Position numbers and translations under genes: made by a program
The notes under the pieces: model-generated
Told to the model about the DNA's origin: nothing
What the model saw: only the letters and a program-made list of their open reading frames with translations
The model's database searches: none
Source: an uncultured Limibaculum sp.
Lineage (GTDB): Bacteria; Pseudomonadota; Alphaproteobacteria; Rhodobacterales; Rhodobacteraceae
Assembly (NCBI GenBank): GCA_964467005.1
Contig: CAYXPI010000002.1
Location: 1 to 48,886, forward strand
Direction: 5' to 3'
DNA: 48,886 nt
Shown: positions 392 to 36,773 of the stretch, in pieces
Layout: each line of letters starts with the position of its first letter
Position numbering within the stretch: the stretch's first letter is position 1

Positions 392-414
392 CCCCGCATC
401 TCCCCGCTCGCTAC

Positions 415-646: not shown

Positions 647-783
647 TCCCTTCCCATCGGGGTTTCGGACCGCCTGCCATGCGCGTGACGCGCGCTCGGG
701 CAAATGGGCTTGCGCCGGTCGGCGGCCCGGTGTCATCCTAAAGCTCGTTTTCATTCGATGGCATTTGACGAAGGGTTTGCTCG

Positions 784-2946: not shown

Positions 2947-2971
2947 GCCCTCTCTTAGGGAAGGAACACCG

Positions 2972-3955: not shown

Positions 3956-3979
3956 GCCCACACCGAAAGGAAACTCGGA

Positions 3980-6127: not shown

Positions 6128-6361
6128 CGGCGCGCCCACTTTGAATTCGCCCGGGATCCACGCCGGATTTACACCGTTCGTCGCGGTCTGATATGGCGAT
6201 TTTTGCTGATTTGCGGTAGATTTGGCCTTGGGTTGCGGAGACGGTCTCCGCCCCCTTACTCGATTTATTATGAAACTTGCGAGGCTCGCCCCAGCCTCGC
6301 TCGCATCGACTTCAATCCGTTGCCTCGGCCACCGTGCCGCGCCGAAGAGAGGACCTGTTCC

Positions 6362-12253: not shown

Positions 12254-12696
12254 CCGAGCTGGTCGTCGCACTCGGATGGGTGGGCATCTACGGGGCCATG
12301 GCGCTCGCCGCCATCGGCTCGATCATGGGCTGCGCGGTGGCGGGGCAAGCGGCCATCGGTGCGATGATGGAGACCTCGGGCGGCTACGGGCGCTATGTGG
12401 GGATCTCCGCCATGCCCTCTTCGCAGATCATCTTCGGCATCGTCATCATGTTCTCGCTCCAGCAGGAGGTGACGGCGGCCAATGGCGGCGCGCTCTTCGC
12501 CATCGGCACGCTGGCGGGGCTTGCGCTGATGATGAGCGGGATCTGGCAGGGCCGGGCCTGCGCCTCCGCGATCATGGCCGCGAAGGACAAGCCCGAGATC
12601 TTCGGTCTCGCGCTCGCACCGGCGGCGATCGTCGAGGGCTTCGCGGTCTTCGCCTTCGTCTTTGCGCTGGTGCTTGCCGGCAGCATCCCGGGCTGA
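12250..12696 (+). CDS. ntpK: V/A-type ATP synthase subunit K (c), 4-TM double-hairpin proteolipid
   Basis: 148 hydrophobic aa; SAMPSSQIIFG, SGIWQG and a single carboxylate in AIVEGFAVFAFVF. Confidence 0.92.
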   Translation: MTELVVALGWVGIYGAMALAAIGSIMGCAVAGQAAIGAMMETSGGYGRYVGISAMPSSQIIFGIVIMFSLQQEVTAANGGALFAIGTLAGLALMMSGIWQGRACASAIMAAKDKPEIFGLALAPAAIVEGFAVFAFVFALVLAGSIPG

Positions 12697-12706
12697 GGGG
12701 CGGGCC

Positions 12707-13393
12707 ATGAGCGAGACCGGGCAGGCGACGGCGGCGGGCATCGAGGCGCTCATCCAGCGGCTCCGCGCCGAGGGGGTGGCCGAGGGCGAGGCGGAGGCCA
12801 ACCGGCTCGTGGCCGACGCGGAGGCGCGGGCGCGCGAGATCGTCGAGGCCGCGCGCACAGAGGCGGCGGCGGAGCGGGCCCAGGCCCAGGCCGAGGCCGA
12901 GCGGCTGAAGCGGGGCGGCGAGGAGGCGCTGAAAATCGCCATGCGCGACGCGGTTCTCGAGCTTTCGGCCTCTCTCAGCCACCGCTTTGCCGAGCGGATC
13001 GAGGCGCGGCTCCAGGCGCTGACCGAGGACGACGCAACGCTCGAGCGCATGATCCTGGCCGTGGCGGGGCGCGCGCGGGCGGAGGCGGGGGCAGACGCGG
13101 CCGAGCGGCTCGAGATCGTGCTGCCGCGGGCGGCCGTCGGGCTCGACGATCTCCGCCGAAATCCCGAAGAGCTTCGCGCGGGCACGCTCAGCCATTTCGT
13201 GGCCAGCGAGGCCGCGGCGATGCTGCGCGAGGGCGTCACCTTCTCGCGCGCCGGCGATGGCACCGGCGGGATCCGCATGGTGCTGACGGAGGAGGGCCTC
13301 AGCGTCGATCTGACCGACGCGGCCATCGCCGAGCTCATCCTCGCCCATCTCCAGCCCCGCTTCCGCGCGCTCCTCGAAGGGGTGGTGAGCTGA
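12707..13393 (+). CDS. ntpE: V/A-type ATP synthase subunit E
   Basis: N-terminal Ala/Glu coiled coil (GIEALIQRLRAEGV..GEAEA), C-terminal VDLTDAAIAELILAHLQPRFRALLEG; operon context. Confidence 0.85.
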   Translation: MSETGQATAAGIEALIQRLRAEGVAEGEAEANRLVADAEARAREIVEAARTEAAAERAQAQAEAERLKRGGEEALKIAMRDAVLELSASLSHRFAERIEARLQALTEDDATLERMILAVAGRARAEAGADAAERLEIVLPRAAVGLDDLRRNPEELRAGTLSHFVASEAAAMLREGVTFSRAGDGTGGIRMVLTEEGLSVDLTDAAIAELILAHLQPRFRALLEGVVS

Positions 13394-14097
13394 TGGGCCA
13401 GTACGTTACGCTGATGGCGAGCCTGCCGGCCCTCGGCCCCGTCCTCGGCGCCAAGCGCGCGCCCATCCTCCGGCCCCGGCTGGAGGCGCGGCTGAAGCTC
13501 CTCGCGCCCGAGCACCGGGCCGAGCTCGACGCGCTGATGCAGGCGCTCACTTGGCGTGGTTGGGGGCTCTCGGCGAGCGATGCGGAGTTCCTCGCGGCCG
13601 CCCGCCGCACCGAGGCGCGGCTGGCCAGTCCGACGCTGCGCCGCCTCCTCCGCGACCGGTTGGAGCTTCGCACCCTGGTTGCGGCCCTCCGCCGTCGCGC
13701 GGCCGGCGAAGGCCCCCCGCCGCCGGACCGGGCGTGGGGCGCCGGGCGCTATCTCCGCCGCATCGTCGAGAACTGGTCCGACCCCGGTTTTGGCGTGGCC
13801 GCGGCCTTTCCCTGGGTGCTGCCGGCACGCGACGCGCTGGAGCGCGGGGCGACGACAGCGCTCGAGCGGCTCCTTCTCGAGGCCGCCTGGCACCAGACCG
13901 AGCGCCACGGGACGGGCCACGACTTCGACTTCGACGCGGTCGCGCTCTACACCGTGCGCTGGAGCCTCCTCGATCGCTGGACCCATTACGACGCCGAGCA
14001 CGCCGCCCAGCGCTTCGACCGCCTCCGCGAGACGGCCCTTCAGCGCCTGCCAGAGGCCCTTACCCCCGGCACCCACCGCCTGGAGGCCGAGCCATGA
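13393..14097 (+). CDS. DUF2764-type V-ATPase subunit C-like protein
   Basis: N-terminal Y..LMASLPAL and C-terminal HDFDFDAVALY.....LLDRW; located between E and A as in chlamydial-type operons. Confidence 0.8.
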   Translation: MGQYVTLMASLPALGPVLGAKRAPILRPRLEARLKLLAPEHRAELDALMQALTWRGWGLSASDAEFLAAARRTEARLASPTLRRLLRDRLELRTLVAALRRRAAGEGPPPPDRAWGAGRYLRRIVENWSDPGFGVAAAFPWVLPARDALERGATTALERLLLEAAWHQTERHGTGHDFDFDAVALYTVRWSLLDRWTHYDAEHAAQRFDRLRETALQRLPEALTPGTHRLEAEP

Positions 14098-15947
14098 CCG
14101 AGACCGCGCCCGCCGAGGCCACCGCCGAGATCGTCGCCGTGCAGGAGGACATCGTGCGCCTCGCCCTCCGCGACCGGGAGGCGGGCCGGCTGATGAAAAA
14201 CGAGGTGGTCCACATCCATCCCCGTCGCCTTCCGGGAGCGGCGCTCCAGGCCGAGATCCTGCGCGTCTCGGGCGGGGAGGCGGACGCCCAGGTCTATGAG
14301 AGCACGATGGGCGTGGGCCTCGGCGACCCGGTCACCCAGTCCGGGCAGCTCCTCTCGGTGCGGCTGGGGCCCGGGCTCCTCGGCCAGGTCTATGATGGGC
14401 TGCAGTCGCCGCTCGAGGTGCTGGCCCAGGGTCACGGGCTCTTCTTGCCGCGCGGTGTCGCCGCGCCGGGCCTCGACGAGAGCGTGAAATGGGCCTTCAC
14501 CGCGGGTGTGCGCATCGGCGCGGAGGTGACGGGCGGCGACGCGCTCGGCACCGTGCCGGAGGGCGTGATCACCCACAAGATCCTGGCCCCCATCGGCATC
14601 GACGAGCCCGTGGAAGTGACCTGGATCCGCGACGGGCCGGTGACCGTGACCGACCCCATCGCGCGCCTCAAAGGCGCCGCGGGGCGAGAGCGCACGGTGA
14701 CGCTCGCGCAGGATTGGCCAGTGCGGATGGCGCTCCCCGGGCCGCTCCTCGCACGGCGGGCGAGCCTCCGCCTCTACCCGGATACGCCGATGACCACGAA
14801 GCAGCGGCTGATCGACACCGTCTTTCCCGTCGCCCAGGGCGGCACCGCCTGCATCCCCGGCCCCTTCGGCGCGGGCAAGACCGTGCTGCAAAACCTGATC
14901 TCTCGCCACGCGGATGTGGATGTGGTGGTGGTGGTCGCCTGCGGCGAGCGCGCCGGTGAGGTGGTGGAGACGATCACCGAGTTTCCGAAGCTCAAGGACC
15001 CGCGGACCGGTGGCTCGCTGATGGACCGGACCGTGATCGTCTGCAACACCTCCTCCATGCCCGTCGCGGCGCGGGAGGCGTCGATCTACACCGGCCTCAC
15101 CATCGCCGAGTATTACCGCCAAATGGGGCTGCGGGTGCTCTTGATCGCGGACTCGACCTCCCGCTGGGCGCAGGCGATGCGCGAGACCTCGGGCCGCCTC
15201 GAGGAGATCCCGGGCGAGGAGGGCTTCCCCGCCTATCTCGACAGCGCGGTGAAGGGGATCTACGAGCGCGCGGGCGTGATCCGAACCAATGACGCCTCGG
15301 TGGGCTCGCTCACCATGATCGGCACCGTCTCGCCCGCGGGCGGCAATTTCGAGGAGCCGGTCACGCAATCGACCCTCGGCGCGGTGAAGTGCTTTCTCGG
15401 GCTCTCGGCGGAGCGGGCCTACAAGCGCTTCTATCCGGCGGTGGATCCGCTTCTCTCCTGGTCCCGCTACCGCGAGCAGCTGGCCCCGTGGTACGCCCGC
15501 GAGATGGGGCCCGGCTGGGCGGCCAAGATCGAGGGCATGCTCCGCCTGCTCATCCGCGGCGCCGAGATCCAGCAGATGATCCAAGTGACCGGCGAGGAGG
15601 GCGTGAGCCTCGAGGATTTCGTGGCCTACCAGGCGGCCCTCTTCCTCGACATGGTGTACCTCCAGCAGGACGCCTTCGACCCGGTGGACGCCGCCGTGCC
15701 GCTCTCCCGCCAAACCGCGCAATTCGAGCTCGCCTACGGCGCCGCCACCCGGGCCTATGCCTTTGCGAGCCAGGCGGAGGCGCGCGCGCATTTCACCAAG
15801 CTGACCGGGCTGGTCAAAAACCTCAACTACGCGGTTGAGGGCTCGACGGAGGCCGAGCGCCTCCTCGCCGAGATCACGGCCCTCGACCGGTCGGTGCCGG
15901 AACACAGCGCCGCGCGGTCTGCTGAGACGTCGGTGATACAGGGCTGA
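14094..15947 (+). CDS. ntpA: V/A-type ATP synthase subunit A
   Basis: Walker A GPFGAGKT, ACGERAGE, ADSTSRWAQAMRE and VSPAGGNFEEPVTQ. Confidence 0.96.
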   Translation: MTETAPAEATAEIVAVQEDIVRLALRDREAGRLMKNEVVHIHPRRLPGAALQAEILRVSGGEADAQVYESTMGVGLGDPVTQSGQLLSVRLGPGLLGQVYDGLQSPLEVLAQGHGLFLPRGVAAPGLDESVKWAFTAGVRIGAEVTGGDALGTVPEGVITHKILAPIGIDEPVEVTWIRDGPVTVTDPIARLKGAAGRERTVTLAQDWPVRMALPGPLLARRASLRLYPDTPMTTKQRLIDTVFPVAQGGTACIPGPFGAGKTVLQNLISRHADVDVVVVVACGERAGEVVETITEFPKLKDPRTGGSLMDRTVIVCNTSSMPVAAREASIYTGLTIAEYYRQMGLRVLLIADSTSRWAQAMRETSGRLEEIPGEEGFPAYLDSAVKGIYERAGVIRTNDASVGSLTMIGTVSPAGGNFEEPVTQSTLGAVKCFLGLSAERAYKRFYPAVDPLLSWSRYREQLAPWYAREMGPGWAAKIEGMLRLLIRGAEIQQMIQVTGEEGVSLEDFVAYQAALFLDMVYLQQDAFDPVDAAVPLSRQTAQFELAYGAATRAYAFASQAEARAHFTKLTGLVKNLNYAVEGSTEAERLLAEITALDRSVPEHSAARSAETSVIQG

Positions 15948-16058
15948 CAAAATGCGTCTAAGGTCCCCATAGGTTGAATCAGGATCGGCGGCGCCGTGGT
16001 CCGGTGCCCGTCCGTCGACGCACTCGCTGAGACCCACACCTGCCCTTGGGGGAAAGCC

Positions 16059-19000
16059 ATGATCTCCGAAGACCTCGCAGCCCAGTTCTACCGCGGCATC
16101 ACGCGCGCGGAGCCCAGCCCCGCCGACATCCAGACCTATGCGGCCGCCGAGAGCGAGACCGCGGCCATCGAGGCCATCATCCGCGACCAGGGGGCCGAGA
16201 CCCTCCGCGTCGTCACCTTCTACCAGATCTACTACAACCGCCTGCCGGATCTTCCGGGGCTCGACTTTTGGACGGGGGTGGCCCGTGCCCCTGCCGGTAT
16301 CTCCGACGCCGCCCTTGCGGGCGCGTTCTTCGGCGCCGGCGAGTTCGAGACGATCTATGGCGGGCGCGAGACCGAGGACGCGGTGCGCCTCATCTACGAG
16401 AACGTGCTCGGCCGCGAGGCGGACATCCCCGGCCTCGAGTTCTGGACGAACGCCGTCCTCGATCCCGACAACAATTTCGGCCTTCGCGAGCTCGGCCTCG
16501 CCTTCGCCACCGCCTCCGAGACCCAGACGACCTTCGCCCCGCTTCTCGACGATTACCTCACCGACCTTGCCGAGGTCGACACCGCGCCCGCCTCCCTCTT
16601 CAGCTACACCGACAAGGACGGGGGCGGCGGCACGCGCTTCAACGGCGCAGAGGGCAAGTCCACCACCACTTCCATCCAGATCCTCGACAAGGGCACGCCC
16701 GTCGAACTGCTCAACACCGGCGATCTGGGCGCGGACAACGCGGTGGCCGCCGACATCATGAACCTGACCGCGCTGCGCAACGACCCCCGGTTCCAGGGCA
16801 TCGACGGTTCTGGCTTCACGGTGGCGGTGATCGACAGCGGCATCGACCTCGATCACCCGGCATTCGGGCGCCTCACCAACGGCGTCTCGGAGCGCATCGT
16901 GGCGGCGATCGACTTCACGCCGGAGTTCGATGGGCCGGACGACATCAACGGCCACGGCACCAACGTCGCCTCCATCGTGGCCTCGGAGGACCCGCAGTAT
17001 CTGGGCGTCGCCCCGGGCGCCAACATCGCGGGGCTCCAGGCGCTCCAGGCCGACGGCCGCGGCTCCAACGCGGATATCGAGCAGTCCCTCCGCTGGGTGC
17101 TGGAGAACGCCAACGCCTACAACATCGTGGCCGTCAACCTCTCGCTCGGCAACGGCTCCAACCTCAACCGCGCCGCCCCCAACCCGAGCGGCTATGCCGA
17201 CGAGCTCGCGGCGCTCCGCTCCATCGGCGTCGTCGTCACCTCCTCGGCGGGCAACGAGTACTACACCTACCAGGAGCCCGGCACGTCGGACCTCGCGGCC
17301 GATCCCAACGTGATCTCGGTGGGGGCGCTCTGGGACCAGAGCGTTCAAAACTTCTTCTGGAACAGCGGGGCGAAGGATTTCGTCTCGACTGCGGGCGACA
17401 TCACCTCCTTCTCGCAGCGCGCCACCGACCCCTCGATCGACACGATCTTCGCCCCGGGCGCGCTGATCGTCGGCGCGGCGCCGGGCGGGGGCACCGCGGC
17501 CCTCGGCGGCACCAGCCAGGCCGCGCCGCAAGTCGCGGGCCTCGTGGCGCTGGCCCAGGAGATCGCCGTCCAGTATCTCGGCCGGCTCCTCACGCCGCAG
17601 GAGTTCGAGGCCGCCCTTCGCGCCGGCGCCACCACCGTGAGCGACGCCGAGACGCCCAACGACAACGTGCGCAACACCAACGCCGTGTTCCAGCAGGTCG
17701 ACGCCCTCGCAATGGCCGAGGCGATCCTCGCCATCGGCGGGATCGACGACCCCGGAGGCCCGATCGACCCGCCCCCGGGCGCTGAGGACCCCATTCCCGG
17801 CGACGCGACCACCACCGCCGTCATCGCCCCCGGCGGCGCGGTGCAAAGCGTGGTGGATTTCGAGTTCGACAGCGACTGGTTCCGCATCGATCTTGTGGGC
17901 GGCGAGGTCTACACCTTCCGTCTCCAGGGCGCGCCCTCCGGCAACGGCACCCTGGCCGATCCCCTTGTGGCCATCCGCGACGAGGCGGGCCGGGTGCTGG
18001 CCTCGGACGACGACAGCGGGCTCGAGGTGGAATCCGAGCTCGGCTTCGTCGCGCCCGAGACCGGGACCTACTTCCTCGAGGCGCGGGCCTTCGAGGGCGG
18101 CACGGGCACCTATCTCCTCTCGGCGGAGGGCCAGGCGGTGTCGGGCGATCTGCCGGCGGGCCCGTCCACGCCCTCGGTGCTGACCCCGGGCACGGCCGTG
18201 GCGAGCGAGATCGACGAGCTCGGCGACCATGATTGGCACCGCCTCGACGTCACACCGGGCACGACCTATTCGATCTTCCTCACCGGGCTCACCCTCGAGG
18301 ATCCGGTGCTTCAGCTCTTTGCGTCGGACGGCACGCTCCTCGGCGCCAACGATGATTTCGACGGCCTCGACAGTGCCCTCGCCTTCAACGCAGAGGCCGC
18401 GGGCTCCGTCTTCGTGGATGCCGGCGCCTTCGCGGACAACGGAACCGGCACCTACGAGGTCTTCGTCCAGATCGAGAGCCCGGGCGGCGGCGGTGGCGAT
18501 ATCCCGGGCGATCCCTCCACCGCGGCCCGCCTCGCTCCCGGCGACACGGTGGAGGGTGTGCTCGACTTCACCGGCGACACCGACTGGTACCGTCTCGATC
18601 TCGACGCCGGGGTGAACTACGAGTTCGCTCTCCTCGGCGCGTCCTCCGGGGTCGGCAATCTCGAGGACCCGCTCGTCGCGCTCTACGACGCGGCGGGGGT
18701 CGAGCTCGCCTTCAACGACGACGCCCCGGGCACGCTCGACAGCCTCCTCGAATTCCGCCCGATCTCGGACGGCACCTACTACGTGTCCGCCGAGAGCTAC
18801 GACGGCGCGAGCGCGGGCAGCTACCGCCTCAGCATGGCCGCGAGCGGCGGCGGCGGGGGCGGCGGCGACCTGCCGGGCGACGTAACGACGCCCGCCGTCA
18901 TCGCGCCGGGCGAGGCGGTGGCCGATGTGCTCGAAACCCCCGGCGATGTCGACTGGTTCGCGACCGAGCTTTTCGCCGGCACCACCTACACCATCGCGCT

Positions 19001-20651
19001 CCGCGGCGCGGCCTCGGGCGGCGGCGATCTCTCCGACCCTCTCGTCGCGCTCTTCGACGCGGTGGGCCGGGAGATCACGTTCGACGACGACGGCGGCGTG
19101 GATCTCGACAGCGAGCTCGTCTTCACGCCCCAGGACAGCGGCATCTACTATGTGAGCGCGGAATCCTACGAAGGGCTCTTCGCCGGCAGCTACACCCTGG
19201 AGCTCGACGCGGCGGGCACGGGCGAACGCGACATCCTGCCGGGCGATCCCAGCACCACCGCGCGCCTGCCGGTCGGCTCCGCCCTCGCCGGCACCCTGGA
19301 CTTCAACGGCGACGAGGACTGGGTGCGCGTCTCGCTCCGCGCGGGCGTCGAGTATCAGATCGACCTCGAGGGCGTGTCGTCCGGCCAGGGCACGCTGGAG
19401 GACCCGGTGCTGGGCGTCTACGATGCCTTCGGCGGGCTCATCGCGAGCGACGACGACGCGGGCGCGGGGCTCGACAGCCAGCTCTTCTTCACCCCGACCG
19501 CGACCGGCGACTACTTCTTGGCCGCGGCGGGTTTCGGCGGGGTCGAGACCGGGACCTTCCTCCTCTCGATCTCGGGCGATGAGACGCTGCAGGAGGTCCC
19601 GGGCGATCCCTCCACCCCCTTCGCGGCGGTGTTCGGCCAGCCCCTCTCCGGCGAGATCGAATTCGGCCCCGACACCGACTGGTACGCGGTCGAGCTCCAG
19701 GCGGGCGCAACCTACGGTTTCGCCCTGTCGGGTCTGGGCGCGGGCCTCGGCACCCTCTCCGACCCTCTCGTCGCACTCTACGACGACGCGGGCGGCTTCC
19801 TCGCCTTCGACGACGACGGCGGCGACGGGCTCGACAGCTTCCTCGAATACACCGCGACCTACACCGGCACCCACTATGTGAGCGCCGAGAGCTTCGGCGC
19901 GGCCACCGGCTCCTACGAGCTCCTGGCCATCGGCCAGGGCGGCGGCCCGGCACCGGTGGACGACATCCCGGTCCTCGCGGAGGGCCGCCTCGTCGCTCAT
20001 GGCGACACGACCACCGGCACCATCGACTTCGTGGACGACCTCGATTTCTTCGCCGTCGATCTCTTCGAGGGCGTGGAATACACCTTCACCCTCGCCGGCG
20101 CGGCGGGCGGCTTCGGCACGCTGGAGGACCCCGGGCTCACCCTGTTCGACGACACGCTCGAGCTCGTGGGCTCGGACGACGACGGCGGCCTCGGGCTCGA
20201 CAGCCAGCTGACCGTGGTCGCGCCCCGCACCGGCACCTACGCCCTGGGCGCGGAGGGGGTGGACGGCACCACAGGCACCTACACGCTGGGCTTCGTCTTC
20301 GCCGAGGACGACGGGTTCTCGGCGGTGACCCAGCCTGGGCAGGAGTTCATTGGCGTGCTCGACTTCGCGGGCGATGTGGACTGGATCCGCGCCGACCTCC
20401 AAGGCGGGGTCACCTACGACGCCTTCCTCGCCGGCAGGGCGACCGACGGCTTCGCGCCGGTCTTCGATCCCATCCTCACCGTGCGCGACGCCCTCGGCTT
20501 CGAGCTCGCGGCCAACGACGACGCCCCGGGCAGCGGCGGCTTCGACAGCGCGGTGACGTTCACCCCGCCGATCGACGGCTCCTACTTCTTCTCGGCCGCC
20601 TCGGTCTCGGGGCAGGAGGCCGACGCCGCCTACAGCCTCTTCATCGCCTGA
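16059..20651 (+). CDS. Large S8 (subtilisin-like) protease with an N-terminal DUF4214/S-layer-anchor-like domain and 8 PPC-like repeats
   Basis: Catalytic triad VAVIDSG / NGHGTNVA / GGTSQAAPQVAG; N-terminal YQIYYNRLPDLPGLDFW and IYENVLGREADIPGLEFW; repeats D.DW....L..G..Y...L.G......L.DP...LYD..G......DDD.G..LDS.L.F.....GTYY. Confidence 0.88.
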   Translation: MISEDLAAQFYRGITRAEPSPADIQTYAAAESETAAIEAIIRDQGAETLRVVTFYQIYYNRLPDLPGLDFWTGVARAPAGISDAALAGAFFGAGEFETIYGGRETEDAVRLIYENVLGREADIPGLEFWTNAVLDPDNNFGLRELGLAFATASETQTTFAPLLDDYLTDLAEVDTAPASLFSYTDKDGGGGTRFNGAEGKSTTTSIQILDKGTPVELLNTGDLGADNAVAADIMNLTALRNDPRFQGIDGSGFTVAVIDSGIDLDHPAFGRLTNGVSERIVAAIDFTPEFDGPDDINGHGTNVASIVASEDPQYLGVAPGANIAGLQALQADGRGSNADIEQSLRWVLENANAYNIVAVNLSLGNGSNLNRAAPNPSGYADELAALRSIGVVVTSSAGNEYYTYQEPGTSDLAADPNVISVGALWDQSVQNFFWNSGAKDFVSTAGDITSFSQRATDPSIDTIFAPGALIVGAAPGGGTAALGGTSQAAPQVAGLVALAQEIAVQYLGRLLTPQEFEAALRAGATTVSDAETPNDNVRNTNAVFQQVDALAMAEAILAIGGIDDPGGPIDPPPGAEDPIPGDATTTAVIAPGGAVQSVVDFEFDSDWFRIDLVGGEVYTFRLQGAPSGNGTLADPLVAIRDEAGRVLASDDDSGLEVESELGFVAPETGTYFLEARAFEGGTGTYLLSAEGQAVSGDLPAGPSTPSVLTPGTAVASEIDELGDHDWHRLDVTPGTTYSIFLTGLTLEDPVLQLFASDGTLLGANDDFDGLDSALAFNAEAAGSVFVDAGAFADNGTGTYEVFVQIESPGGGGGDIPGDPSTAARLAPGDTVEGVLDFTGDTDWYRLDLDAGVNYEFALLGASSGVGNLEDPLVALYDAAGVELAFNDDAPGTLDSLLEFRPISDGTYYVSAESYDGASAGSYRLSMAASGGGGGGGDLPGDVTTPAVIAPGEAVADVLETPGDVDWFATELFAGTTYTIALRGAASGGGDLSDPLVALFDAVGREITFDDDGGVDLDSELVFTPQDSGIYYVSAESYEGLFAGSYTLELDAAGTGERDILPGDPSTTARLPVGSALAGTLDFNGDEDWVRVSLRAGVEYQIDLEGVSSGQGTLEDPVLGVYDAFGGLIASDDDAGAGLDSQLFFTPTATGDYFLAAAGFGGVETGTFLLSISGDETLQEVPGDPSTPFAAVFGQPLSGEIEFGPDTDWYAVELQAGATYGFALSGLGAGLGTLSDPLVALYDDAGGFLAFDDDGGDGLDSFLEYTATYTGTHYVSAESFGAATGSYELLAIGQGGGPAPVDDIPVLAEGRLVAHGDTTTGTIDFVDDLDFFAVDLFEGVEYTFTLAGAAGGFGTLEDPGLTLFDDTLELVGSDDDGGLGLDSQLTVVAPRTGTYALGAEGVDGTTGTYTLGFVFAEDDGFSAVTQPGQEFIGVLDFAGDVDWIRADLQGGVTYDAFLAGRATDGFAPVFDPILTVRDALGFELAANDDAPGSGGFDSAVTFTPPIDGSYFFSAASVSGQEADAAYSLFIA
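17780..20650 (+). repeat. Eight tandem PPC-like domain repeats of about 115-125 aa
   Basis: Units begin DPIPGD, GDLPAG, GDIPGD, GDLPGD, DILPGD, EVPGD, DDIPV and SAVTQPG, each with D.DW/DF and DP motifs. Confidence 0.8.
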
Positions 20652-28413: not shown

Positions 28414-29508
28414 TCAGGGCTCGGGCGCGAGGACGGCGACATCGCCGCCCGCGTCGAAGAACTGCACGACGACGCCCATATCATGGAGGAGGCCGGCCTC
28501 GGGCTCGGCCGCCGCGCGGTCGGCGAAGGTCACGCGCACGCGCTCGACCGCCGAGCCGTCGCCCGCCCCGTCCTCGAGGAAGCCGAGGATCTGGAAGACG
28601 TCCGCGGCGCCGAGCCCCCGGCCCTCGGGCGGGAGTGCCGTGAATTCGAGGCTCTGGTCGTCGTCGCGGTAGCCCACCTGGTCGAGGATCTGCCGGGCGT
28701 CCAGCGCCTCCTCCTCATCAACGCTGAGGAGCGGGAGGAAGTACTCCGTCCGGCCTGGCTTGGCGGCGCGTGCCATGGCCACGGCGCTCTCGAAGGCCGC
28801 GATGTGGTAAGGCGCGTCGTGAAGCCCCGCCGGCGCCCGGGCCACGCGCACCAGGCCCTCGCGGCGCTCCGCCTGGCCCCAGGCGGCGTAGAACGCCTCC
28901 GGGTCCGCGTAGGCGTCGGCCACCTCTTCGGGATCGAGCACGGCGGCCATCACCTCGGGCCGGCCAAAGGGCGGGCGGGGGCCGAGCTCGCGGTCCCCAT
29001 CCCGGCGGATCTCAGCACGGAGCACCGGCAGCTTGGCGAGCGCGGCGGTGAGAACCGCCTCCTCCGCGGCGAGCGCGTCGGCGAAGGCGCTCACATCGTC
29101 CTCCGCCCAGCCATAGCGGCTTTGAAAGATCCGCCAGCCCTGCGTCCGGCCATGGCTGAGCTCGTCCTCGCCCTCCGCGGGCGGCAGGGTGTTGAGCGCC
29201 ATCACCGACACGCCGAAGCTCTTGCCGCGGATCTGGAACCCCGGGGCGAAGGCCGCTTCGCCGAGGTTTTCGAGATCGGCAGGGCTCGGCGTTCCCTTGC
29301 GGTCGGCCGCGGCCAAGGTCTTGGCCGTCGCCGCCTCGCCTGCGAGCTGCCAGACATCGGCCTTGAAGCCCGGCGCGGCCACCACCGCCTCGAGCGCGAA
29401 GGCCAGGAGATCGGCCACCGGCGACGCCCCGGTGACGATCTCGAGATCCAGGCTCGAGGGCAGGGTGATCTCGGCCCCGTCGAGGGCGCCCAAGTCTATC
29501 TCAGCCAT
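28414..29508 (-). CDS. Acidic hypothetical protein, candidate immunity protein (364 aa)
   Basis: Its start overlaps the last 13 nt of the upstream putative toxin gene; Asp/Glu-rich; no signal peptide. Confidence 0.7.
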   Translation of the reverse strand: MAEIDLGALDGAEITLPSSLDLEIVTGASPVADLLAFALEAVVAAPGFKADVWQLAGEAATAKTLAAADRKGTPSPADLENLGEAAFAPGFQIRGKSFGVSVMALNTLPPAEGEDELSHGRTQGWRIFQSRYGWAEDDVSAFADALAAEEAVLTAALAKLPVLRAEIRRDGDRELGPRPPFGRPEVMAAVLDPEEVADAYADPEAFYAAWGQAERREGLVRVARAPAGLHDAPYHIAAFESAVAMARAAKPGRTEYFLPLLSVDEEEALDARQILDQVGYRDDDQSLEFTALPPEGRGLGAADVFQILGFLEDGAGDGSAVERVRVTFADRAAAEPEAGLLHDMGVVVQFFDAGGDVAVLAPEP

Positions 29509-32500
29509 AGGAGCCTTCCGCGACTGTCATAATAGGCGACGTGGATGTTGCTGCTCAGCTTGTGCGTCTTGATCTGGTCGACCGCAAGCTGCGCGGCGGC
29601 CTTGTCCGGGAAGAAGTAGGCGAGGCCCTTGAGCTCCCGGGCCGTGTCTCCGGTGCCGGTCTTGATGCTGCCGGAGGCGAGATCGGCGCTGTAGCTTTTG
29701 AGCTGATCCAGATCGAAGGCGCCGGCACTGCTCTTGTCCTCCACCAGGTAGTCGCCCGGCTCCTTCGGACCGCGCTGCTTGGCCATCTTCTTGGCCGAGG
29801 AGCCCGAGGCGGGGGCGACCGAGACGATGTCGTCGCCGCGGCGCGTGGTGCCGCGGATGGTGAGCTCGCCCGAGGCGCGGGAGGCGCGCTGGATCTGCCG
29901 GCTGGGGTCCGACATGGTGGCCGCTCGGAAGGCGGTGAAGAGCTCGCCCCGGGCGGTCTGGTCCGGCATCGTCTCGATGAAGCCCTTGAGGGCGGCGATC
30001 CGGTCCTCCTTCGGCACATGGTCCGTGATGTGCGCCACCAGCTTGTCGCGCATCGCGTGGCGGAGCTTTTTCGGGAAGGACGCCTCGGTCGCCCCTTCGA
30101 TCCCGGCCACCACGCTCTTGATGTCGAAGGCGGGCACCCTGACCGTCTTGCCGTCGACCGTGTAGGAGAGCCCGTCCGAGATCGCCTTGAATGCCTTCTC
30201 GTAGTATTTGCACTGGGCCCGGTTCTCCGGGATCATCGCCTCGGTCATATCGTCGAGGGCCGGGAAGGTCTCCTTGCCTTCGAGCTTGGCGGTCAGCCGC
30301 TCGCGCCGCTGCTTGGCGGTGAGCTTCACGGCCGGGTCGTCCGGGTCGAGTTCGATCTTGCGCACGACCCATTCGAGCTCGTTGGTCTCTGGGTTCACCC
30401 GCTGCTCGAGCGAGAACTTCTCGTACTTGCCTGTGTCGGGGTTCACCGGATCGACCCAGTTGCCGCCCTTCTCGCCGGATTTGCGGAAGCGCACGAGCTC
30501 GTAATCCCCCGTGTTCTTCTGGCGGAAGAAGTGGCCGTCCGGCAGGTCGTCCTTGGTGAGGCCGAGGGCGTCGAGCGCCTCCTGGTTGCGCTTGGGCACG
30601 TGCTCGGTCTTGAAGAGGCGGGGGGGCGGCACGTCGTCGATCCAGGAGGGCGCGCCGCCGTCGTCCATCGCCTTCTTCACCTCGTCGAGGCGGCTCGCGT
30701 AATGCGCCTGATCCGCCTCGGCAAAAGCCAGCTCGTCGGCCACGTCCTCCATCATGTCCTCGAGCCGGCGGAGGTCCTGCGGGTCGGCCTCGTCGACGGT
30801 CTCGAGGAGCGCGTTGTAGGCGATGTTGATCTGGCGCTGCCGCTCGGTGATCTCGGCCACAAGATCCGCCTGCTGGCGCGCCTCGATCGTGAGCTGCGCT
30901 TCGAAGGCCTCGAGCTTCTGGCCCACGGTCTTGGTCGCCCAGTTGTCGAGCTGGTCCTCGGTCAGCTTCAGAGCCGCGCGTTTGAGCTCGGGGTCCTTCG
31001 TGATCTGGATGAGATGCGCCATCTCCTCCTTGATGGCGGCGTTGCGCGCGTCGGGGCTCGCGCCGGCCCGCGCGACGATCTCCACATAGAGATTGCCCGC
31101 CTCGTCGTGGCGCATGAGCGTGACGGCCTCGGCCGCGTCCGAGCCGAAGCGCGCGTCGAAGGCGGTCTCGGACATGAGCTGGGTCGAGACGCTCCGCACC
31201 CCGCCGAGATTGACGGCCTCTTTGAGGATGCGCGTGTACTCGGCGTGCTTGGCGTCGTCGATGCCGAGGTGGCGGAGCATGTCGCCCCAGTCCTCGTCCG
31301 AGAGCCGGGCGAGATCGGCCGCATCGTCGAGGCCCTTGAGGCTGACGAGCGCGCGGATCGCCTTCACCGCGTCGAACCCGTCGAGCACCACGCCGCCCCA
31401 GGCGACCGCCACCCACCCCCAATGGGGCACGAGCTCGGGGTCGAGGAGCCCGCCCGTGGGGTCGAGGGCCGTGCCCGCCGCGGCGGAGAGCATGAAGTAG
31501 TCCTGCGTCGTCTTCACGGCGTCGTAGGTGCCGACGGCGATGGACGCGCCGATGAGGACAAGCGCCACCCCACCCGTGGCGAAGGCCGCGCCCACGGCGA
31601 GCCCGATCGAGAGGGCGGCCAGCGCCACGCCCTCGATAAGCTTCCGTCGCTTGGCGCGCTTCACCTTCTCCTGGATCCAGCCAAGGCGGACGCCCTGCAC
31701 GCCGAGGGCCGCAATGGCGGCGTTGCGCATCCCGTCGAGCGCCCAGAGATCGAGCGACTTCGAATCTAGATTGGCCCGCGTGTCCGAGATGTTCTGGATC
31801 ACCTCGTCGACCGTGCCGGAGAACGCGCCGCTCGCAGGCGGCGCGCTCGCCGCGGCCATGGCCCTGCGCCGAGCGGGCTCGAGACGAAGCGCCAAAGGGA
31901 AGGGCTCGACGACCGTGGTCTTGAGGCTCTCGAGCGTGCCGATCTCGGTGTCGCGGGCGGCCTTCGCGTCGGCCACTGCCTCCTCGGCCGCGGCGCGCGC
32001 GTCCTCGAGATCCGGGTTCGCGCCCATCTGGGTGGGATCCTCGGTCTCGGCCGCGTCGATCGCCGCCTCGGCGTCGTCGAGCCGTTTCTCGGCGGCGGCC
32101 ACCAGCCCATCGTGCTTGGTCTTCGCGGTCGCGATCCGCTCCTCGATCTTGTCGAGCCGGCGCGAGACGACCTTGAGCCGCTCGAAGGCCGCGGGCGTCA
32201 TCGCCCGGCCCTCGAGCTCGGCCTTCATCTTCTGCGCCTCCCGCTCCGAGACGGCGAGGGCCGCGTAGCAGCTGTCGCGCATCACGAGCTCGAACTGCTC
32301 GAGGAAGGCGTCCTTGTCGTCGAGATACTCGAAGCCCGGGCCGAAGGCCACGAGCTGCGCTTCGTAGGGGTCGAGGAGGCTCGCCGCGCGGTTGATCACG
32401 CCGAGGCCCGAGCGCATGTCGATCACGTAGTCGTCCGAGGTGATGAGCGTCTGCAGCCCGGAATGGTCGCGCCGGATGTTGAGGCCGTACTCCTTGAACC

Positions 32501-34727
32501 TCTCGGCCTCGGCCAAGGTCATCTTCGACATGCTCTTGTAGGAGAGGACGTCGGACTCGTAGGCGACGTAGTGGCCGTCCTCCAACATCACGGCGGCCGG
32601 GCCCTTCAGGCGGCGCGCGAACGCGTTGGCCTCGCTCAGGGAGCCGAGCTCGCGCTCGCTCCGGCGCTTGAGAACCACGGGGGAGTTGTTGAAGGTCGCG
32701 ACCCGGATGCCGGAGAAGCCGCCGTGCTCGAGATCGATGCGCCCGCCGCCGGTCTCCTGGCGGATGCGGAGCTTCTCGAGCAGCCGGTCGACGGATTTGA
32801 AATACACCTCCGGGTCGCTGGTCGTGCCCGTGAATCCCGCCTTCACCTCGGCCAGCTCCTCGTCGGTCAGCTCGTCGAGCTTCTCTGCGGCCAGAAGCAT
32901 CTTCTCGAGGATGTCCGGCGTGAGCGGAACGCCGCCCTTCTTCCACTCGAAGAAGTTGAGGATCCGCTCTGGCAGCGCCTCCAGACGCTGGAGCTTGTCC
33001 ACCATCTCGGCGCGCTTCTCGAGCCAGGCCTCCGAGATGGCCGGGAAGTTGGGGTCGTCCGGGTCGATCTTCTGTCCGGGTTTGTAGCCGATCTCGTCGA
33101 AGAACTCCTGATCGGCGAGCTTGTTCACTTGGGCTTGGAGCTCTGGGGGCATGGCGCGGAATGCGTCGTCGAGCGCGTCGCGGTCCTCCGGGCTGTAGGA
33201 TGTGTCGCTCTCGATGAAATGACGCACGGGGATCGCGCCGTGCTCGTCCACCATCTCCTGGGTGATGTCGTATTTCGGGTGGAGGCGATTGCCCTCGTCG
33301 GCGCAGTGCTGGATCGCCTCGGGTCGGCTCATGCCGTGGTACTGCATGTAGTACATCACGTCGAATTCGAGCGAGGTCATCGGCGTGCTGACGGGGACGA
33401 GCACCCGGATCCAGGAACCGGCCGGCTCCGGCCCGGCCCCCTCGGTCTCCGGCGTCGCGACGGGGCGGATCTGAGGCGCGCCGAAGGTGACGATGCCGCG
33501 GGGCTTCTTCTTGCGCTTTCGCCCCTCCTTGCCTTGGGCGGGAGGTGCGGCCGGCGGGGCCGGGGATGCAACGGGGGTCGCGGCGGTCTCGAGGGTGTCG
33601 ACCGCGGCCTCGGCGGCGGCCAGATCGCCCGCGCGCACCGCCGAGGCGTAGCCGGCGAGCGCCCCGCGCAGCTCGGCGGCCTGGGTGCTGGGGAGCTGGG
33701 CCAGCCGAGGCTTGAGCGCCGAGAAGGCGGCGCCGTAGCGGGCCTTCAGCGCCTCGGCCGCGGCGGGGGGCAGGCGTGGCGCCGGCGGCGCCTCGGCCGT
33801 GGGGGCCGCGCCCGCCATGGCGGCCTCCCGCACGGGCTCGGGTGCGGGCTCAGGCGTCGGCGGGGCCCTCTCCTCCCGGATCGTCCCTCCGCCCTCTGGG
33901 TCGGGATCTGGCGCCGAGAGATCCACCGGCGCCAGCGTCTCGTCCGCCTCCGCCTCGTCCGAGCCGTCGATCTCCACCCCGCCTTCGAGGATCTTCACCT
34001 TGGAGAATTGCGTCACCCCGAGCTTCTTCAGCATGAGGCGCACGCGCTTGGCGAGTGCGGGGATCCGTCGGCCCTCGAGATGGAGGCAGAGGGTGCGCGC
34101 GCCGACCCCCTCCTCGCCATGCTCCTCGGCCAGCCGCTCGGTGCCCGCCTGGCCGAAGGTGAACTTCTTGGCGCCCGCCTCCTTCCGCAACACCCCCGCG
34201 AGGCCGCGGGGCGCCTTGGTGGCGTGGAAGTTGAGCCGCATTTCCTCGGGCTGGTTCGAGGGCAGGCCCACGGCAAAGCTCACCTGCCCGCGTTTGATCC
34301 GGGGCGCCCATTTCTTGATGAAGGCGGCATGGGCCACGGGATCGACGAATTGGCCGGCCTCTTCGGCGTCCGCCGCCGTCTCCGCGCCCGCCTGGGCCTC
34401 GGCCCGGGCTGCGGCGATCTCCTTGGCGAGCGGTTTGCCCATCACCGCGACGGTGTTGGCGAGGTCGGCCTTGGCCTTCTTGTCCTTGGCCTTTTTCTCG
34501 AGCTCCTTGGCCTCGGCGGCCACCTGCTTGCCCGTGGCGGCGAGCTTGTCGAGTGCGCCCTCATAGGCCTTGAGCGCGGCCTCCGCCCGGGCGCCACCCA
34601 GCGCCGCCCCGGCTTTCGCCACGTCGTCGAGCACCTTCTCGAAGGCGGGGCCGGACTTCCTGAGGCCGTCCGGCGCCTCCTTCTTCCACCAGCTCTTGCT
34701 GAGGGTGATCTGCGACGCGCTCTTCAT
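29496..34727 (-). CDS. Putative polymorphic toxin (1743 aa) with a C-terminal restriction-endonuclease-fold domain
   Basis: GGAGGA RBS before ATG 34727; modular layout of Lys/Ala-rich N-terminus, Pro-rich linker, coiled coils, Gly/Ala TM hairpin, EEMAH motif, and C-terminal RRGDDIV...YLVEDKS...FDLDQLKSY (PD-(D/E)xK plus Q..Y helix). Confidence 0.75.
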   Translation of the reverse strand: MKSASQITLSKSWWKKEAPDGLRKSGPAFEKVLDDVAKAGAALGGARAEAALKAYEGALDKLAATGKQVAAEAKELEKKAKDKKAKADLANTVAVMGKPLAKEIAAARAEAQAGAETAADAEEAGQFVDPVAHAAFIKKWAPRIKRGQVSFAVGLPSNQPEEMRLNFHATKAPRGLAGVLRKEAGAKKFTFGQAGTERLAEEHGEEGVGARTLCLHLEGRRIPALAKRVRLMLKKLGVTQFSKVKILEGGVEIDGSDEAEADETLAPVDLSAPDPDPEGGGTIREERAPPTPEPAPEPVREAAMAGAAPTAEAPPAPRLPPAAAEALKARYGAAFSALKPRLAQLPSTQAAELRGALAGYASAVRAGDLAAAEAAVDTLETAATPVASPAPPAAPPAQGKEGRKRKKKPRGIVTFGAPQIRPVATPETEGAGPEPAGSWIRVLVPVSTPMTSLEFDVMYYMQYHGMSRPEAIQHCADEGNRLHPKYDITQEMVDEHGAIPVRHFIESDTSYSPEDRDALDDAFRAMPPELQAQVNKLADQEFFDEIGYKPGQKIDPDDPNFPAISEAWLEKRAEMVDKLQRLEALPERILNFFEWKKGGVPLTPDILEKMLLAAEKLDELTDEELAEVKAGFTGTTSDPEVYFKSVDRLLEKLRIRQETGGGRIDLEHGGFSGIRVATFNNSPVVLKRRSERELGSLSEANAFARRLKGPAAVMLEDGHYVAYESDVLSYKSMSKMTLAEAERFKEYGLNIRRDHSGLQTLITSDDYVIDMRSGLGVINRAASLLDPYEAQLVAFGPGFEYLDDKDAFLEQFELVMRDSCYAALAVSEREAQKMKAELEGRAMTPAAFERLKVVSRRLDKIEERIATAKTKHDGLVAAAEKRLDDAEAAIDAAETEDPTQMGANPDLEDARAAAEEAVADAKAARDTEIGTLESLKTTVVEPFPLALRLEPARRRAMAAASAPPASGAFSGTVDEVIQNISDTRANLDSKSLDLWALDGMRNAAIAALGVQGVRLGWIQEKVKRAKRRKLIEGVALAALSIGLAVGAAFATGGVALVLIGASIAVGTYDAVKTTQDYFMLSAAAGTALDPTGGLLDPELVPHWGWVAVAWGGVVLDGFDAVKAIRALVSLKGLDDAADLARLSDEDWGDMLRHLGIDDAKHAEYTRILKEAVNLGGVRSVSTQLMSETAFDARFGSDAAEAVTLMRHDEAGNLYVEIVARAGASPDARNAAIKEEMAHLIQITKDPELKRAALKLTEDQLDNWATKTVGQKLEAFEAQLTIEARQQADLVAEITERQRQINIAYNALLETVDEADPQDLRRLEDMMEDVADELAFAEADQAHYASRLDEVKKAMDDGGAPSWIDDVPPPRLFKTEHVPKRNQEALDALGLTKDDLPDGHFFRQKNTGDYELVRFRKSGEKGGNWVDPVNPDTGKYEKFSLEQRVNPETNELEWVVRKIELDPDDPAVKLTAKQRRERLTAKLEGKETFPALDDMTEAMIPENRAQCKYYEKAFKAISDGLSYTVDGKTVRVPAFDIKSVVAGIEGATEASFPKKLRHAMRDKLVAHITDHVPKEDRIAALKGFIETMPDQTARGELFTAFRAATMSDPSRQIQRASRASGELTIRGTTRRGDDIVSVAPASGSSAKKMAKQRGPKEPGDYLVEDKSSAGAFDLDQLKSYSADLASGSIKTGTGDTARELKGLAYFFPDKAAAQLAVDQIKTHKLSSNIHVAYYDSRGRLLWLR

Positions 34728-34841
34728 CGGGATCCTCCGGTGGCGGGCGGCGCGGGTCTGCGGGCGCCGGCGCGTCAACCCGTCAAAGCTCCGGCGATTC
34801 GCCCGGGCCTGTCAACCTGCCCGGGCGGGGGCCGGCGGGGC

Positions 34842-36773
34842 TCAGAAGTCGTCGCGCGCCCAGTCGAGCGGGGGCAGTTCCTCCACGATCTCGAAGGCGA
34901 TCGTCTCGGTGAAGCTGCGCCCGTAGCGGTCGGTCGTGGTGACGGTGAGGGTGTGGACGCCGGCGGGCAGGTTGGCCGGCAGGTCGGCCCGCCAGAGATG
35001 GTTGGAGCCCCGGGTGAGCATCCAGGCCTGGAAGGGCTGGGCGGTGGACGCGATCCACTCCACCCCCTTCCAGGTCTGATAGCCGGCGCCGCCCTCGCCG
35101 AAGCTCTTCACCGTCACCCGGCCCTGGGAGGCTTGCTTGGCCAGCGCGTGGGGGTCGGCGAATTCGGGGCCGGCGGAGGGGGCCTCGCCCGCGCCGTCTT
35201 GGGTGCGGCGGGCCTGGATCGCCGCCTGGTCGTTGATCGCGACGGACACCCGGCTGTCGCGCGAGCCGTTCCAGACATTGACGACCACCCAGCTGCCGCC
35301 GGCGAGGTCTGCGCGCGAGAGCAGGTTGGGGTCGCCGAGATCGTTGACCGAGACCGGCGGGATCACGTCCTGCGGCGGGTTGTAGGCGTCGGCATAGGCG
35401 AAGAGCTTGCGCGCCCAGTCGCGGAACCGCGGGGTGTTGAACGACGCGTGCATCTGCGCCTCGGGCCCGGCGTCGAAGGTGCGGTAGGTGTCGACATAGG
35501 CCGCGCCGTCGAATTCGAGGATATAGTAGCCGCGGGGCGAGCCGAGGCGTTGGGTGGCGTGGGGAATGCCCGCGTCGTTGAGATCCCCCGCCCACCAGGA
35601 GCCCGAGAGCGCGCCGGTGACGATCTGGTGGAAGGGCTGGGGCCCGACGCCGGTGTTCTCGGCGAAGCCCGCGAACTCCTCTCCGGGCAGGATCTGCTCG
35701 GTGGTGTGGGTGTGGCCCGAGAGGCCGAGGGCCGGACGGTCGCCGATGATCTCGGCGAGGGCCGCGAAATTGTCCGTCTGGTGCTTTTGCGCGTCCGCGT
35801 TCGCGAAGGTGACGAGGGGAATGTGGGTGTTGATCACGATGAGCCGGTCCTCGGGCACCTGGGCGAGGTTGTTCTCGAGCCAGGTGAGCTGACGCTCGGA
35901 GATCACGCCGTTGTAGGTGGGCGCGCGCGCGAGGTCGCAAAACGGGTGATCGTCCACCCCGTTGCAAGGGTAGCGCACATTGTCGAGCACAACGAAATGG
36001 ACCTGGCCGATGTCGAAGGAGTAGTACTCCGGCCCCCATTCCGCGCGGAAGGTGTCGAGGGAATGGGCATCGCTTTCGGCGTCGAAATCGAGGTCGTGAT
36101 TGCCGGGCACGAAGTATTGCGGCACCCGGCCGAGGGCGATGATCTCCTTGAAGCGGGGGTAGAGGGAGAGGTCGTCGCCCATCACGTCGCCCTCGAACAG
36201 GAGGCATTCGGTGGCCGAGTTGTCGCGACTGGCGAGGAGCTTGCCCGCGGTCTCGCGCACATAGCCGATCTCGCGGTTGGAGTAGGGCTGCGCGTCGCCG
36301 AAGACGAGGCACTCGAAGACGTCGCCCGTGCCGTCGTCGACCAAAGGGAAGTTGACCGCTTCGGGCAGCGGCCCGGTGGGCGCGATGCCGCCGAAGCGGA
36401 GCGGTGGGGACCCCTCGACCTTATGGATGTAGAAGAACTGGGAGACCATGTCCGGGCTTACCGGTGCACTCATCCCCGCGGGTTTGGTGATGAAGAGGTT
36501 CATGTCGTCGACGGCGGGGAGGGCGTAGGCGCCCGCTCGGTCGGTGACCGTGACGTCGAGGCCGTTGGAGACGAGGACGCCTGGAACGCCGGCCTCGCCC
36601 GCATCCATCCGGCTGTTGCGGTTCGTGTCGTGGAAGACGGTGCCGCGGGCCACGTCCGAGCCGTCGCCGGCCCCGCGGATCACCTCGACGGTGCCGATGT
36701 AGTCGGGGTCTTTGGCGAGCGCATGGGGCGCGGCCAGGGCGGCCGCGAGGACCGTGGTGGAGAAATGGCGCAT
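34842..36773 (-). CDS. Exported calcineurin-like metallophosphoesterase (MetallophosN/Metallophos/MetallophosC architecture)
   Basis: Signal peptide; G.VFHDTNRNS..D.GEAGVPGVLVSNG; motifs GDAQP, EGDVMGD, PGNHD, HIP and SGHTH. Confidence 0.9.
   Translation of the reverse strand: MRHFSTTVLAAALAAPHALAKDPDYIGTVEVIRGAGDGSDVARGTVFHDTNRNSRMDAGEAGVPGVLVSNGLDVTVTDRAGAYALPAVDDMNLFITKPAGMSAPVSPDMVSQFFYIHKVEGSPPLRFGGIAPTGPLPEAVNFPLVDDGTGDVFECLVFGDAQPYSNREIGYVRETAGKLLASRDNSATECLLFEGDVMGDDLSLYPRFKEIIALGRVPQYFVPGNHDLDFDAESDAHSLDTFRAEWGPEYYSFDIGQVHFVVLDNVRYPCNGVDDHPFCDLARAPTYNGVISERQLTWLENNLAQVPEDRLIVINTHIPLVTFANADAQKHQTDNFAALAEIIGDRPALGLSGHTHTTEQILPGEEFAGFAENTGVGPQPFHQIVTGALSGSWWAGDLNDAGIPHATQRLGSPRGYYILEFDGAAYVDTYRTFDAGPEAQMHASFNTPRFRDWARKLFAYADAYNPPQDVIPPVSVNDLGDPNLLSRADLAGGSWVVVNVWNGSRDSRVSVAINDQAAIQARRTQDGAGEAPSAGPEFADPHALAKQASQGRVTVKSFGEGGAGYQTWKGVEWIASTAQPFQAWMLTRGSNHLWRADLPANLPAGVHTLTVTTTDRYGRSFTETIAFEIVEELPPLDWARDDF

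Follow-up and report, generated by a model that had tools for sequence, protein, structure and literature searches.

An orphan toxin-immunity gene pair of Rhodobacteraceae whose N-terminal module is probably a marker of type VI secretion cargo

How does a giant toxin leave the cell that makes it when neither the protein nor its neighboring genes show a recognizable secretion marker? This question is raised by a gene pair of an uncultured Limibaculum sp. (family Rhodobacteraceae; assembly GCA_964467005.1), which lies in the first 48,886 nucleotides (nt) of contig CAYXPI010000002.1, the stretch that we analyzed and call the window. An earlier note, made from the letters alone, had read the pair as an orphan polymorphic toxin of 1743 amino acids (aa) with a nuclease tip and a 364-aa immunity partner, and had suggested an undescribed delivery route. 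Our computational analysis bears out the toxin-immunity architecture, but it directs the question of delivery elsewhere. The N-terminal domain of the toxin is shared with many other proteins, co-occurs with type VI secretion systems (T6SS), and in most carriers is encoded within T6SS gene clusters. It is probably a T6SS cargo marker of an undescribed, lineage-specific kind, and the route itself is probably a known one.

We consider it fairly probable that the pair operates as follows. The toxin would be an orphan T6SS cargo that is loaded via its N-terminal module. Given that the Hcp tube cannot accommodate a protein of this size, we infer that the module loads it on the VgrG/PAAR spike, either directly or via short members of the same family that act as adaptors. 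A hydrophobic hairpin would then carry the tip across the inner membrane of the target cell, and an EEMAH segment might, as speculation, release it. The C-terminal PD-(D/E)xK domain would degrade target DNA. The partner, which is translationally coupled to the toxin, would neutralize the tip and so protect the producer. The features on which this reading draws are as follows (window coordinates, all on the minus strand).

34734..34738, minus strand: ribosome-binding site GGAGG, 6 nt upstream of the start of the toxin gene (sequence)
29496..34727, minus strand: gene for the 1743-aa polymorphic toxin, with an ATG start
34365..34727, minus strand: domain A, residues 1-121, a four-helix bundle rich in Lys and Ala that contains a WWxxExP motif (AlphaFold2 model, alignments)
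33948..34346, minus strand: domain B, residues ~128-260, alpha/beta, the conserved core of the family and candidate T6SS cargo marker (AlphaFold2 model, profiles)
33348..33935, minus strand: linker rich in Pro and Ala that includes a short helical segment, residues ~265-460 (sequence)
31290..32315, minus strand: coiled coil and Gly/Ala hydrophobic hairpin, residues ~805-1146, the predicted membrane-crossing pre-toxin region (hydropathy)
31014..31028, minus strand: EEMAH motif, residues 1234-1238, in a conserved beta-beta-alpha segment (homolog alignment)
29499..30290, minus strand: toxin tip, residues 1480-1743, a helical lid and a predicted PD-(D/E)xK nuclease domain (motif, model)
28414..29508, minus strand: gene for the acidic 364-aa protein, predicted to confer immunity and belonging to an unnamed family; its start shares 13 nt with the end of the toxin gene

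Both open reading frames and their overlap are as the earlier note had described them, every motif that it named was located in the 1743-aa protein, and neither protein matches a Pfam or NCBIfam family. A ribosome-binding site precedes each gene. The isoelectric point is 4.3 for the partner and 9.7 for the last 150 aa of the toxin. The hydrophobic core of the hairpin spans residues 1029-1072, with WGWVAVAW at 1103. In the EEMAH segment, which we take to be zincin-like, the E and H are invariant in all five aligned sequences, one homolog reads HEMVH, and Pfam gives no meaningful match.

The two genes are real and look native because their GC content at third codon positions (0.92 and 0.90) is close to the genome median of 0.91. 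Likewise, the locus is not a chimera, since contigs from four runs of one stromatolite metagenome study tile it in overlapping pieces and the domain order of the toxin is found again in other organisms. Joints in this contig layout that have one short side were not accepted as tip swaps. The closest named relatives are records from Paralimibaculum, Pikeienuella, and Limibaculum. The pair is flanked by a 643-aa gene that has no Pfam match, presumably metallophosphoesterase-like, and by a DUF4212/solute-symporter operon. None of the datasets listed for the locus is an RNA dataset, and promoter and terminator scans returned only chance-level signals. Among the window genes scanned with Pfam and NCBIfam, no secretion genes were identified, as the earlier note had stated; the T6SS of this genome lies on other contigs.

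The first ~270 aa of the toxin match four other genes of the same genome (74, 64, 47, and 37% identity) whose C-termini are unrelated, and a fifth match, weak and partial, lies on contig C125. A profile built from the five module genes of the genome finds the N-terminal domain in 178 protein clusters (clustering at 50% identity, E up to 0.001). Family composition and tips were counted in the best 150 of these 178 clusters, of which 107 carry both sub-domains, 41 carry domain B only, and 2 carry domain A only. The 104 members of at least 400 aa fall into 32 C-terminal groups, including some singletons truncated by contig ends. The tips of long members include colicin-DNase/WHH (HNH), Endonuclea_NS_2, and Ntox4 domains as well as the restriction-endonuclease (REase) tip described here, and we take still others to be papain-like or zincin-like.

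The polymorphic toxin reading of the earlier note is supported by a shared N-terminal module and by varied C-terminal tips. That note had named homologs conserved over their full length with an invariant C-terminus as evidence against its reading. Four homologous family members do share the present REase tip (P0001, P0002, P0040, and P0050), in partial agreement with that objection, but many others have different tips. Among the genes behind such tips, an HNH-tipped member is directly followed by an SMI1/KNR4 gene (locus L207). Domain-B proteins of ~1900 aa (L193-L199, L060, and L061) end in a YQFRAPxEWFxxxY segment, presumably zincin-like, and have CpXC genes behind them, which makes them a candidate second toxin-partner family. 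A candidate third pair consists of members of ~1300-1400 aa (L204, L210, L211, and L212), whose tip we take to be papain-like, and a conserved 139-155-aa gene without a Pfam match that comes next.

An AlphaFold2 model of the module (mean pLDDT 91) contains a four-helix bundle at residues 11-121 and an alpha/beta domain at residues 130-248. Solved folds that match this model are generic helical bundles only, in searches that barely tested domain B, and three weak rows point to ADF-H/gelsolin (E 0.3-1.5). In the ESM Atlas, the N-terminus and the partner fall only into unnamed clusters below 0.8. With regard to distribution, a phylum-wide sample has the domain in 2 of 21 genomes of Rhodobacteraceae and in 0 of 379 others. 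The family includes Leisingera proteins, and also single proteins of metagenome-assembled genomes from Azospirillaceae and Gammaproteobacteria.

Some smaller observations concern individual members of this family. Behind a ~690-aa paralog lies a conserved 268-aa gene without a library match (L002:9787-10593 and L012:10285-11091), possibly a chaperone. A 98-aa acidic gene behind the C194 paralog (L001:620-916, minus strand), also without a library match, is likely the immunity gene for the different tip of that paralog. Suspected resemblances of the C194 paralog and its partner to an RNase A-like tip and to CdiI, and of a gene neighboring the C23 paralog to EspG (type VII), found no support in Pfam or NCBIfam and were set aside. 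Four short members (P0100, P0105, P0121, and P0151) end in a PxCEEC motif, presumably the one of T6SS spike-associated proteins. TTGAC occurs within ~150 nt upstream of four of the five full domain genes (window 34728-34880, and upstream of the C194, C23, and C39 genes) and of tssB, compared to 372 of 3565 genes genome-wide; it may be a shared promoter element.

The link between the domain and T6SS begins with the genome itself, which is 88.85% complete. Its T6SS is split over contigs C226, C184, and C17, and the gene calls include tssA-C, E-G, and J-M, along with hcp, clpV, vgrG, and PAAR. An orphan second hcp (C1:38690-39196) is 41% identical to the cluster copy. Among 400 Rhodobacterales genomes, 33 carry the domain, which occurs in 20 of 138 genera when the genome studied here is counted. 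Of the 33 carriers, 32 have tssC, compared to 109 of the 400 genomes overall. Within the genus, all 12 domain carriers among 60 genomes have tssC, compared to 35 of the 60 overall.

Furthermore, the domain gene lies inside a 20-kb stretch around tssC in 26 of the 32 carriers with that gene. Such stretches of ~20 kb were taken from all 32 carriers and from 33 of 77 non-carriers, and several carrier stretches were placed with the position of the domain already known. The corresponding count of 0 in 33 for domain-negative T6SS loci was not used as evidence because these genomes were defined by lacking the domain. Placement follows two patterns: domain-B genes are divergent from tssA, whereas domain-A genes lie 22-48 nt behind clpV and before an ion-transport gene and a long second tssC. 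Ion-transport genes occupy this position between clpV and the long tssC in several genomes (PF00520 in L054). Also divergent from tssA, often behind a domain gene, is a set comprising a small gene, a MotA/TolQ/ExbB gene, and two ExbD genes. On a Leisingera caerulea plasmid, the domain gene (annotated as hypothetical) adjoins tssA and heads the ExbB/ExbD operon. These accessory genes of carrier T6SS clusters are located as follows.

L214:14001-16938; L054:16269-19796; also in L076, L079, and L086: ExbBD-like operons
C17:1478-2743 (genome studied); L054:2817-3719; L214:849-1679: ion-transport genes in the T6SS operon

Each of the 32 tssC-bearing carriers from the order shows at least two VipB matches, which is what tssC together with its long variant tssCL would give. 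TssC phylogeny also groups the carriers. A quickly built tree of 66 rows puts these carriers and one non-carrier in one clade (33 rows, support 99). A FastTree analysis with 29 genus sequences added (95 rows, among which a further genus carrier with a partial tssC is not included) places all of its 44 carriers in one 64-row clade, and the TssC of the genome studied clusters (support 0.995) with that of three carriers in which A and B are likewise fused. Because the domain tracks T6SS across the order and the genus and lies within T6SS clusters in the majority of carriers, and because the genome studied has that T6SS on other contigs, the undescribed route suggested earlier has become less likely.

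A number of observations weigh against the reading of the toxin as T6SS cargo loaded by its N-terminal module. Fisher p-values for the association of the domain with T6SS (5e-19 and 7e-4) overstate it because related genomes are not independent, and only six candidates per genome were scored in the order-wide search. The single carrier without tssC (G028) has a marginal hit (E 1e-4) with a stop codon. None of the five domain genes of the genome lies beside T6SS genes, the positions listed for the genus show no domain copy adjacent to T6SS, and only one vgrG was found in the genome for five or six candidates. In the 66-row tree, the TssC of this genome falls outside the 33-row carrier clade, and the 64-row clade of the larger tree also holds 20 non-carriers. 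With regard to the cargo itself, T6SS-adjacent members are mostly 260-660 aa and have no recognizable toxin tip, about half of the family lacks such a tip, and 53 of the 104 members of at least 400 aa share one helical C-terminus without a toxin signature. As for the REase tip, Foldseek returns no match at E up to 0.001, and no single structural match is significant (E at least 0.14, Z at most 6.2, pLDDT 74).

The abundance of tipless members also favors a different arrangement, in which the toxin does use T6SS, but its N-terminal domain is an accessory or interaction module (an adaptor, a membrane anchor, or a partner of the ExbBD-like genes) and a separate adaptor, for example one of the shorter family members, does the loading. 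The gene neighborhoods are in keeping with this alternative: in L011, stand-alone domain genes lie ahead of a toxin gene, and the domain gene next to tssA heads the operon with MotA/TolQ/ExbB and two ExbD genes. Domain genes (~500 aa) likewise head a conserved three-gene operon, followed by helical proteins of ~940-1270 aa and ~1000-1050 aa without Pfam matches (C39:7693-16023, which is L003, and L013, L014, L052, L055, L058, L059, and L215, with a degenerate copy on C125); together they may form an effector or an adaptor made of several parts. Domain A is similar to the four-helix bundles with which large clostridial toxins bind membranes (Z 9.5-9.8, rmsd 2.1-2.2, 86-89 residues aligned), a likeness that is within the chance range for helical bundles. 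However, the domain is always N-terminal and occurs on many tips, as is reported for RIX, whose carriers include secreted adaptors (PMC10435454). We regard an accessory module as unlikely.

The toxin might instead take another exit, such as a type I, flagellar, or type III system, an extracellular contractile injection system (eCIS), vesicles, or lysis, with the T6SS link reflecting the shared ancestry of a competitive gene set. The studied locus is indeed an orphan. Three plasmid matches other than that of L. caerulea (four of eight examined in all) comprise two without nearby secretion genes and one behind a type I system, where the three-gene operon directly follows an ABC/HlyD pair. However, this last plasmid also has tssC and a long second tssC, its HlyD matched none of 104 other loci of at least 8 kb, and the toxin contains no GGxGxD repeats.

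Between the pre-toxin region and P0006, an eCIS-core protein, there is weak similarity, with 26.5% identity over 366 columns unfiltered, a match that shrinks to 36 aa with a low-complexity filter. The eCIS_core domain (DUF4157) was not found in the toxin by Pfam, and no phage-sheath gene was found in the 88.85% complete genome. A DUF4781 protein is reported from Burkholderia type III secretion clusters (PMC12580581), and DUF4781 occurs in paralogs of our toxin. Against a type III exit, the genome has one FlhA, located in the flagellar cluster, and among five carriers, FliQ/SctS is single in four and was not found in one; eCIS_core is present in one of the five. We judge another exit to be quite improbable, and return to the T6SS cargo reading to consider what the toxin would deliver.

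The tip is predicted to be a PD-(D/E)xK nuclease domain, an REase-fold assignment that we base on its motif together with consistent weak structural matches. Its recognizable segments are RRGDD (residue 1629), LVEDK (1661), DQLKSY (1674), and GLAYFF (1701). Six residues are invariant in all six loci that carry the tip (D1632, E1663, D1664, K1665, Q1675, and Y1679) and give the motif D…ExK…QxxxY, in which QxxxY is presumably the element of RecB-type nucleases. In a model made from four sequences (mean pLDDT 74), strands and helices follow one another as they do in the REase fold. In the alpha-beta-beta-beta-alpha-beta core of this model, D1632 lies on the second strand and E1663-x-K1665 lies on the third, which is the PD-(D/E)xK layout.

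Foldseek ranks the restriction enzyme PaqCI first (prob 0.96, E 0.14) and CdiA-CT fourth, with more REase folds below. The VIA rows over residues 125-264 of the tip are mostly REase folds as well, with PaqCI best (Z 6.2, rmsd 4.0, 100 aligned) and further rows for NucS, BglII, XisH, CdiA-CT, SdaI, and TseT (Z 4.3). The REase-type tip proposed in the earlier note therefore holds up through its invariant catalytic-type residues and through structural rows that mostly show that fold, each below significance. Pfam assigns the tip to no family, and the named Tox-REase profiles in Pfam and NCBIfam are unmatched, with remote membership possible. No meaningful match came from profile searches against PDB sequences. 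A word-index search found no shorter tip homolog; the genome and metagenome scans did yield homologs.

The partner gene travels with this tip. Searching 100 relatives with the partner gave a single strong match, which has this tip immediately upstream of it; two marginal rows of this search (E ~0.008) were dropped. Searches with the tip only gave four loci, on three metagenome contigs and in 1 of 400 genomes, all of which have a partner homolog (29-36% identical) directly behind the tip. In total, tip and partner occur together in six of six loci, which are not six independent events because L067 closely resembles L068, and the tip of L069 is that of P0040. The 13-nt overlap is seen in four of the six, and in L068 the cassette lies behind an unrelated N-terminus. 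A word search found no partner homolog, although the genome and metagenome scans did yield some. Plasmid searches with the partner and with a C-terminal stretch of a short family member found nothing. The ESM Atlas relates the partner to DUF5953 (0.76, 21% of members), which is a lead only.

Modeling predicts that the 364-aa partner binds the tip. The predicted complex scores 0.78 and the best control scores 0.02; the mark for such scores was reached by 116 of 157 solved pairs and 2 of 215 mismatched pairs, and it applies only roughly here because our own alignments were used. At least 84% of the contacts recur between runs, and the partner has a pLDDT of at least 87. On the tip, most of the predicted interface lies on surface rich in Lys and on the final helix (residues 1643-1742) rather than on the catalytic residues themselves. 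Together with the linkage in all six loci and the lack of a Pfam family for any of the six partner proteins, this prediction speaks for the new immunity family that the earlier note had envisaged. The last ~65 residues of the partner (28414-28680, minus strand) resemble the last ~75 of the tip (hhalign E 6e-4, probability 29%). This alignment scores 31.9, compared to at most 20.1 in 40 block shuffles, and is a lead only.

PD-(D/E)xK domains are common in defense systems, which counts in favor of a third alternative: that the pair is an intracellular toxin-antitoxin system, a defense nuclease, or an effector aimed at eukaryotes rather than an interbacterial weapon. The surroundings of the pair in the window also fit, given that no further toxin cassettes and no orphan tip-immunity cassettes are present near or behind it. 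However, the pair has a tightly coupled partner that travels with the tip and a hydrophobic hairpin, tips are swapped, and an SMI1/KNR4 gene lies behind a sister tip, which together form the pattern of antibacterial polymorphic toxins (PMC3482391). We therefore consider this third alternative very unlikely and retain the reading of the pair as a T6SS toxin and its immunity protein.

A close precedent for the N-terminal module is RIX, reported to be an arginine-rich motif of ~55 aa from Vibrionaceae and Moritellaceae that is necessary and sufficient for secretion (PMC10435454). The same text speculates that other families own comparable domains. Our module shares with RIX a family-restricted N-terminal domain, orphan genes, varied tips, and toxin-less members ahead of a cargo gene. 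Unlike RIX, it is a Lys/Ala-rich module of ~260 aa with two domains, it is found in Rhodobacteraceae and often inside the T6SS cluster, and its secretion role is putative; it thus falls outside the RIX definition. MIX, FIX, PIX, and WHIX (PMC12135965) are likewise N-terminal domains that each define a class of polymorphic effectors carried as T6SS cargo. The module matches no Pfam or NCBIfam family and, in fold searches that barely tested domain B, no solved structure beyond generic helical bundles; it may be distinct from these four domains.

The tip resembles Tox-REase toxins, such as Tox-REase-5/Imm52 (PMC3482391) and TseT-TsiT, in its predicted C-terminal REase fold, its D/ExK/Q residues, and its large downstream immunity gene. 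It differs from Tox-REase-5/Imm52 in having the motif GD…EDK…QxxxY instead of FDG/EAK and in having partners without a Pfam hit. The weakly similar hydrophobic pre-toxin region of P0006 and the HExxH-like motif recall the toxins of eCIS/PVC, which differ in the eCIS_core domain and phage sheath that our toxin and genome appear to lack.

The secretion system itself corresponds to the roseobacter group-3 (H1-like) T6SS with TssCL (PMC9515649), to judge by the two or more VipB matches of the carriers and the Leisingera proteins in the family. This 2022 survey states that functions of roseobacter T6SSs are undescribed and reports few effectors from a similarity search, and its effector search, as given in section 12, lists no proteins of our family. 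The main text of another report (10.1101/2021.10.07.463556), as available, contains neither Rhodobacter nor Alphaproteobacteria. No description of the N-terminal domain was found in the literature searched, which mostly excluded subscription papers, and supplements may list such a domain.

What appears to be new here is therefore a cargo-marking domain, an REase tip, and an immunity family, on a machine that is already known. A broader proposal, to which we give even chances, is that the module is the cargo-loading code of a T6SS subtype specific to roseobacters (with TssCL, the ion-transport gene, and the ExbBD-like operon) and defines an arsenal of giant effectors and secreted adaptors, with a partner family that may in part derive from a copy of the nuclease fold that it counters. 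If the lineage-specific marker holds, it would point straight to effector, adaptor, and immunity-gene candidates in strains that can be cultured, such as Leisingera and its relatives. Interbacterial competition by roseobacters, including that in the squid egg-gland symbiosis, would become directly testable. After RIX, it would then be a second T6SS cargo domain restricted to one family, and under the broader proposal it would reveal an undescribed arsenal in a major lineage of the sea for which T6SS effectors are undescribed.

Other genes were noted in the window. In positions 2-7921, an integrase-like fragment lies at the contig edge, and after it come a patatin-like gene, a gene for a C45-like hydrolase, and two unknown genes. 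A V/A-type ATPase operon follows at 8545-15947 (plus strand), here in an alphaproteobacterium, and at 15996-20651 (plus strand) lies a gene for an S8 subtilase of 1551 aa, in which DUF4214 accompanies five PPC domains.

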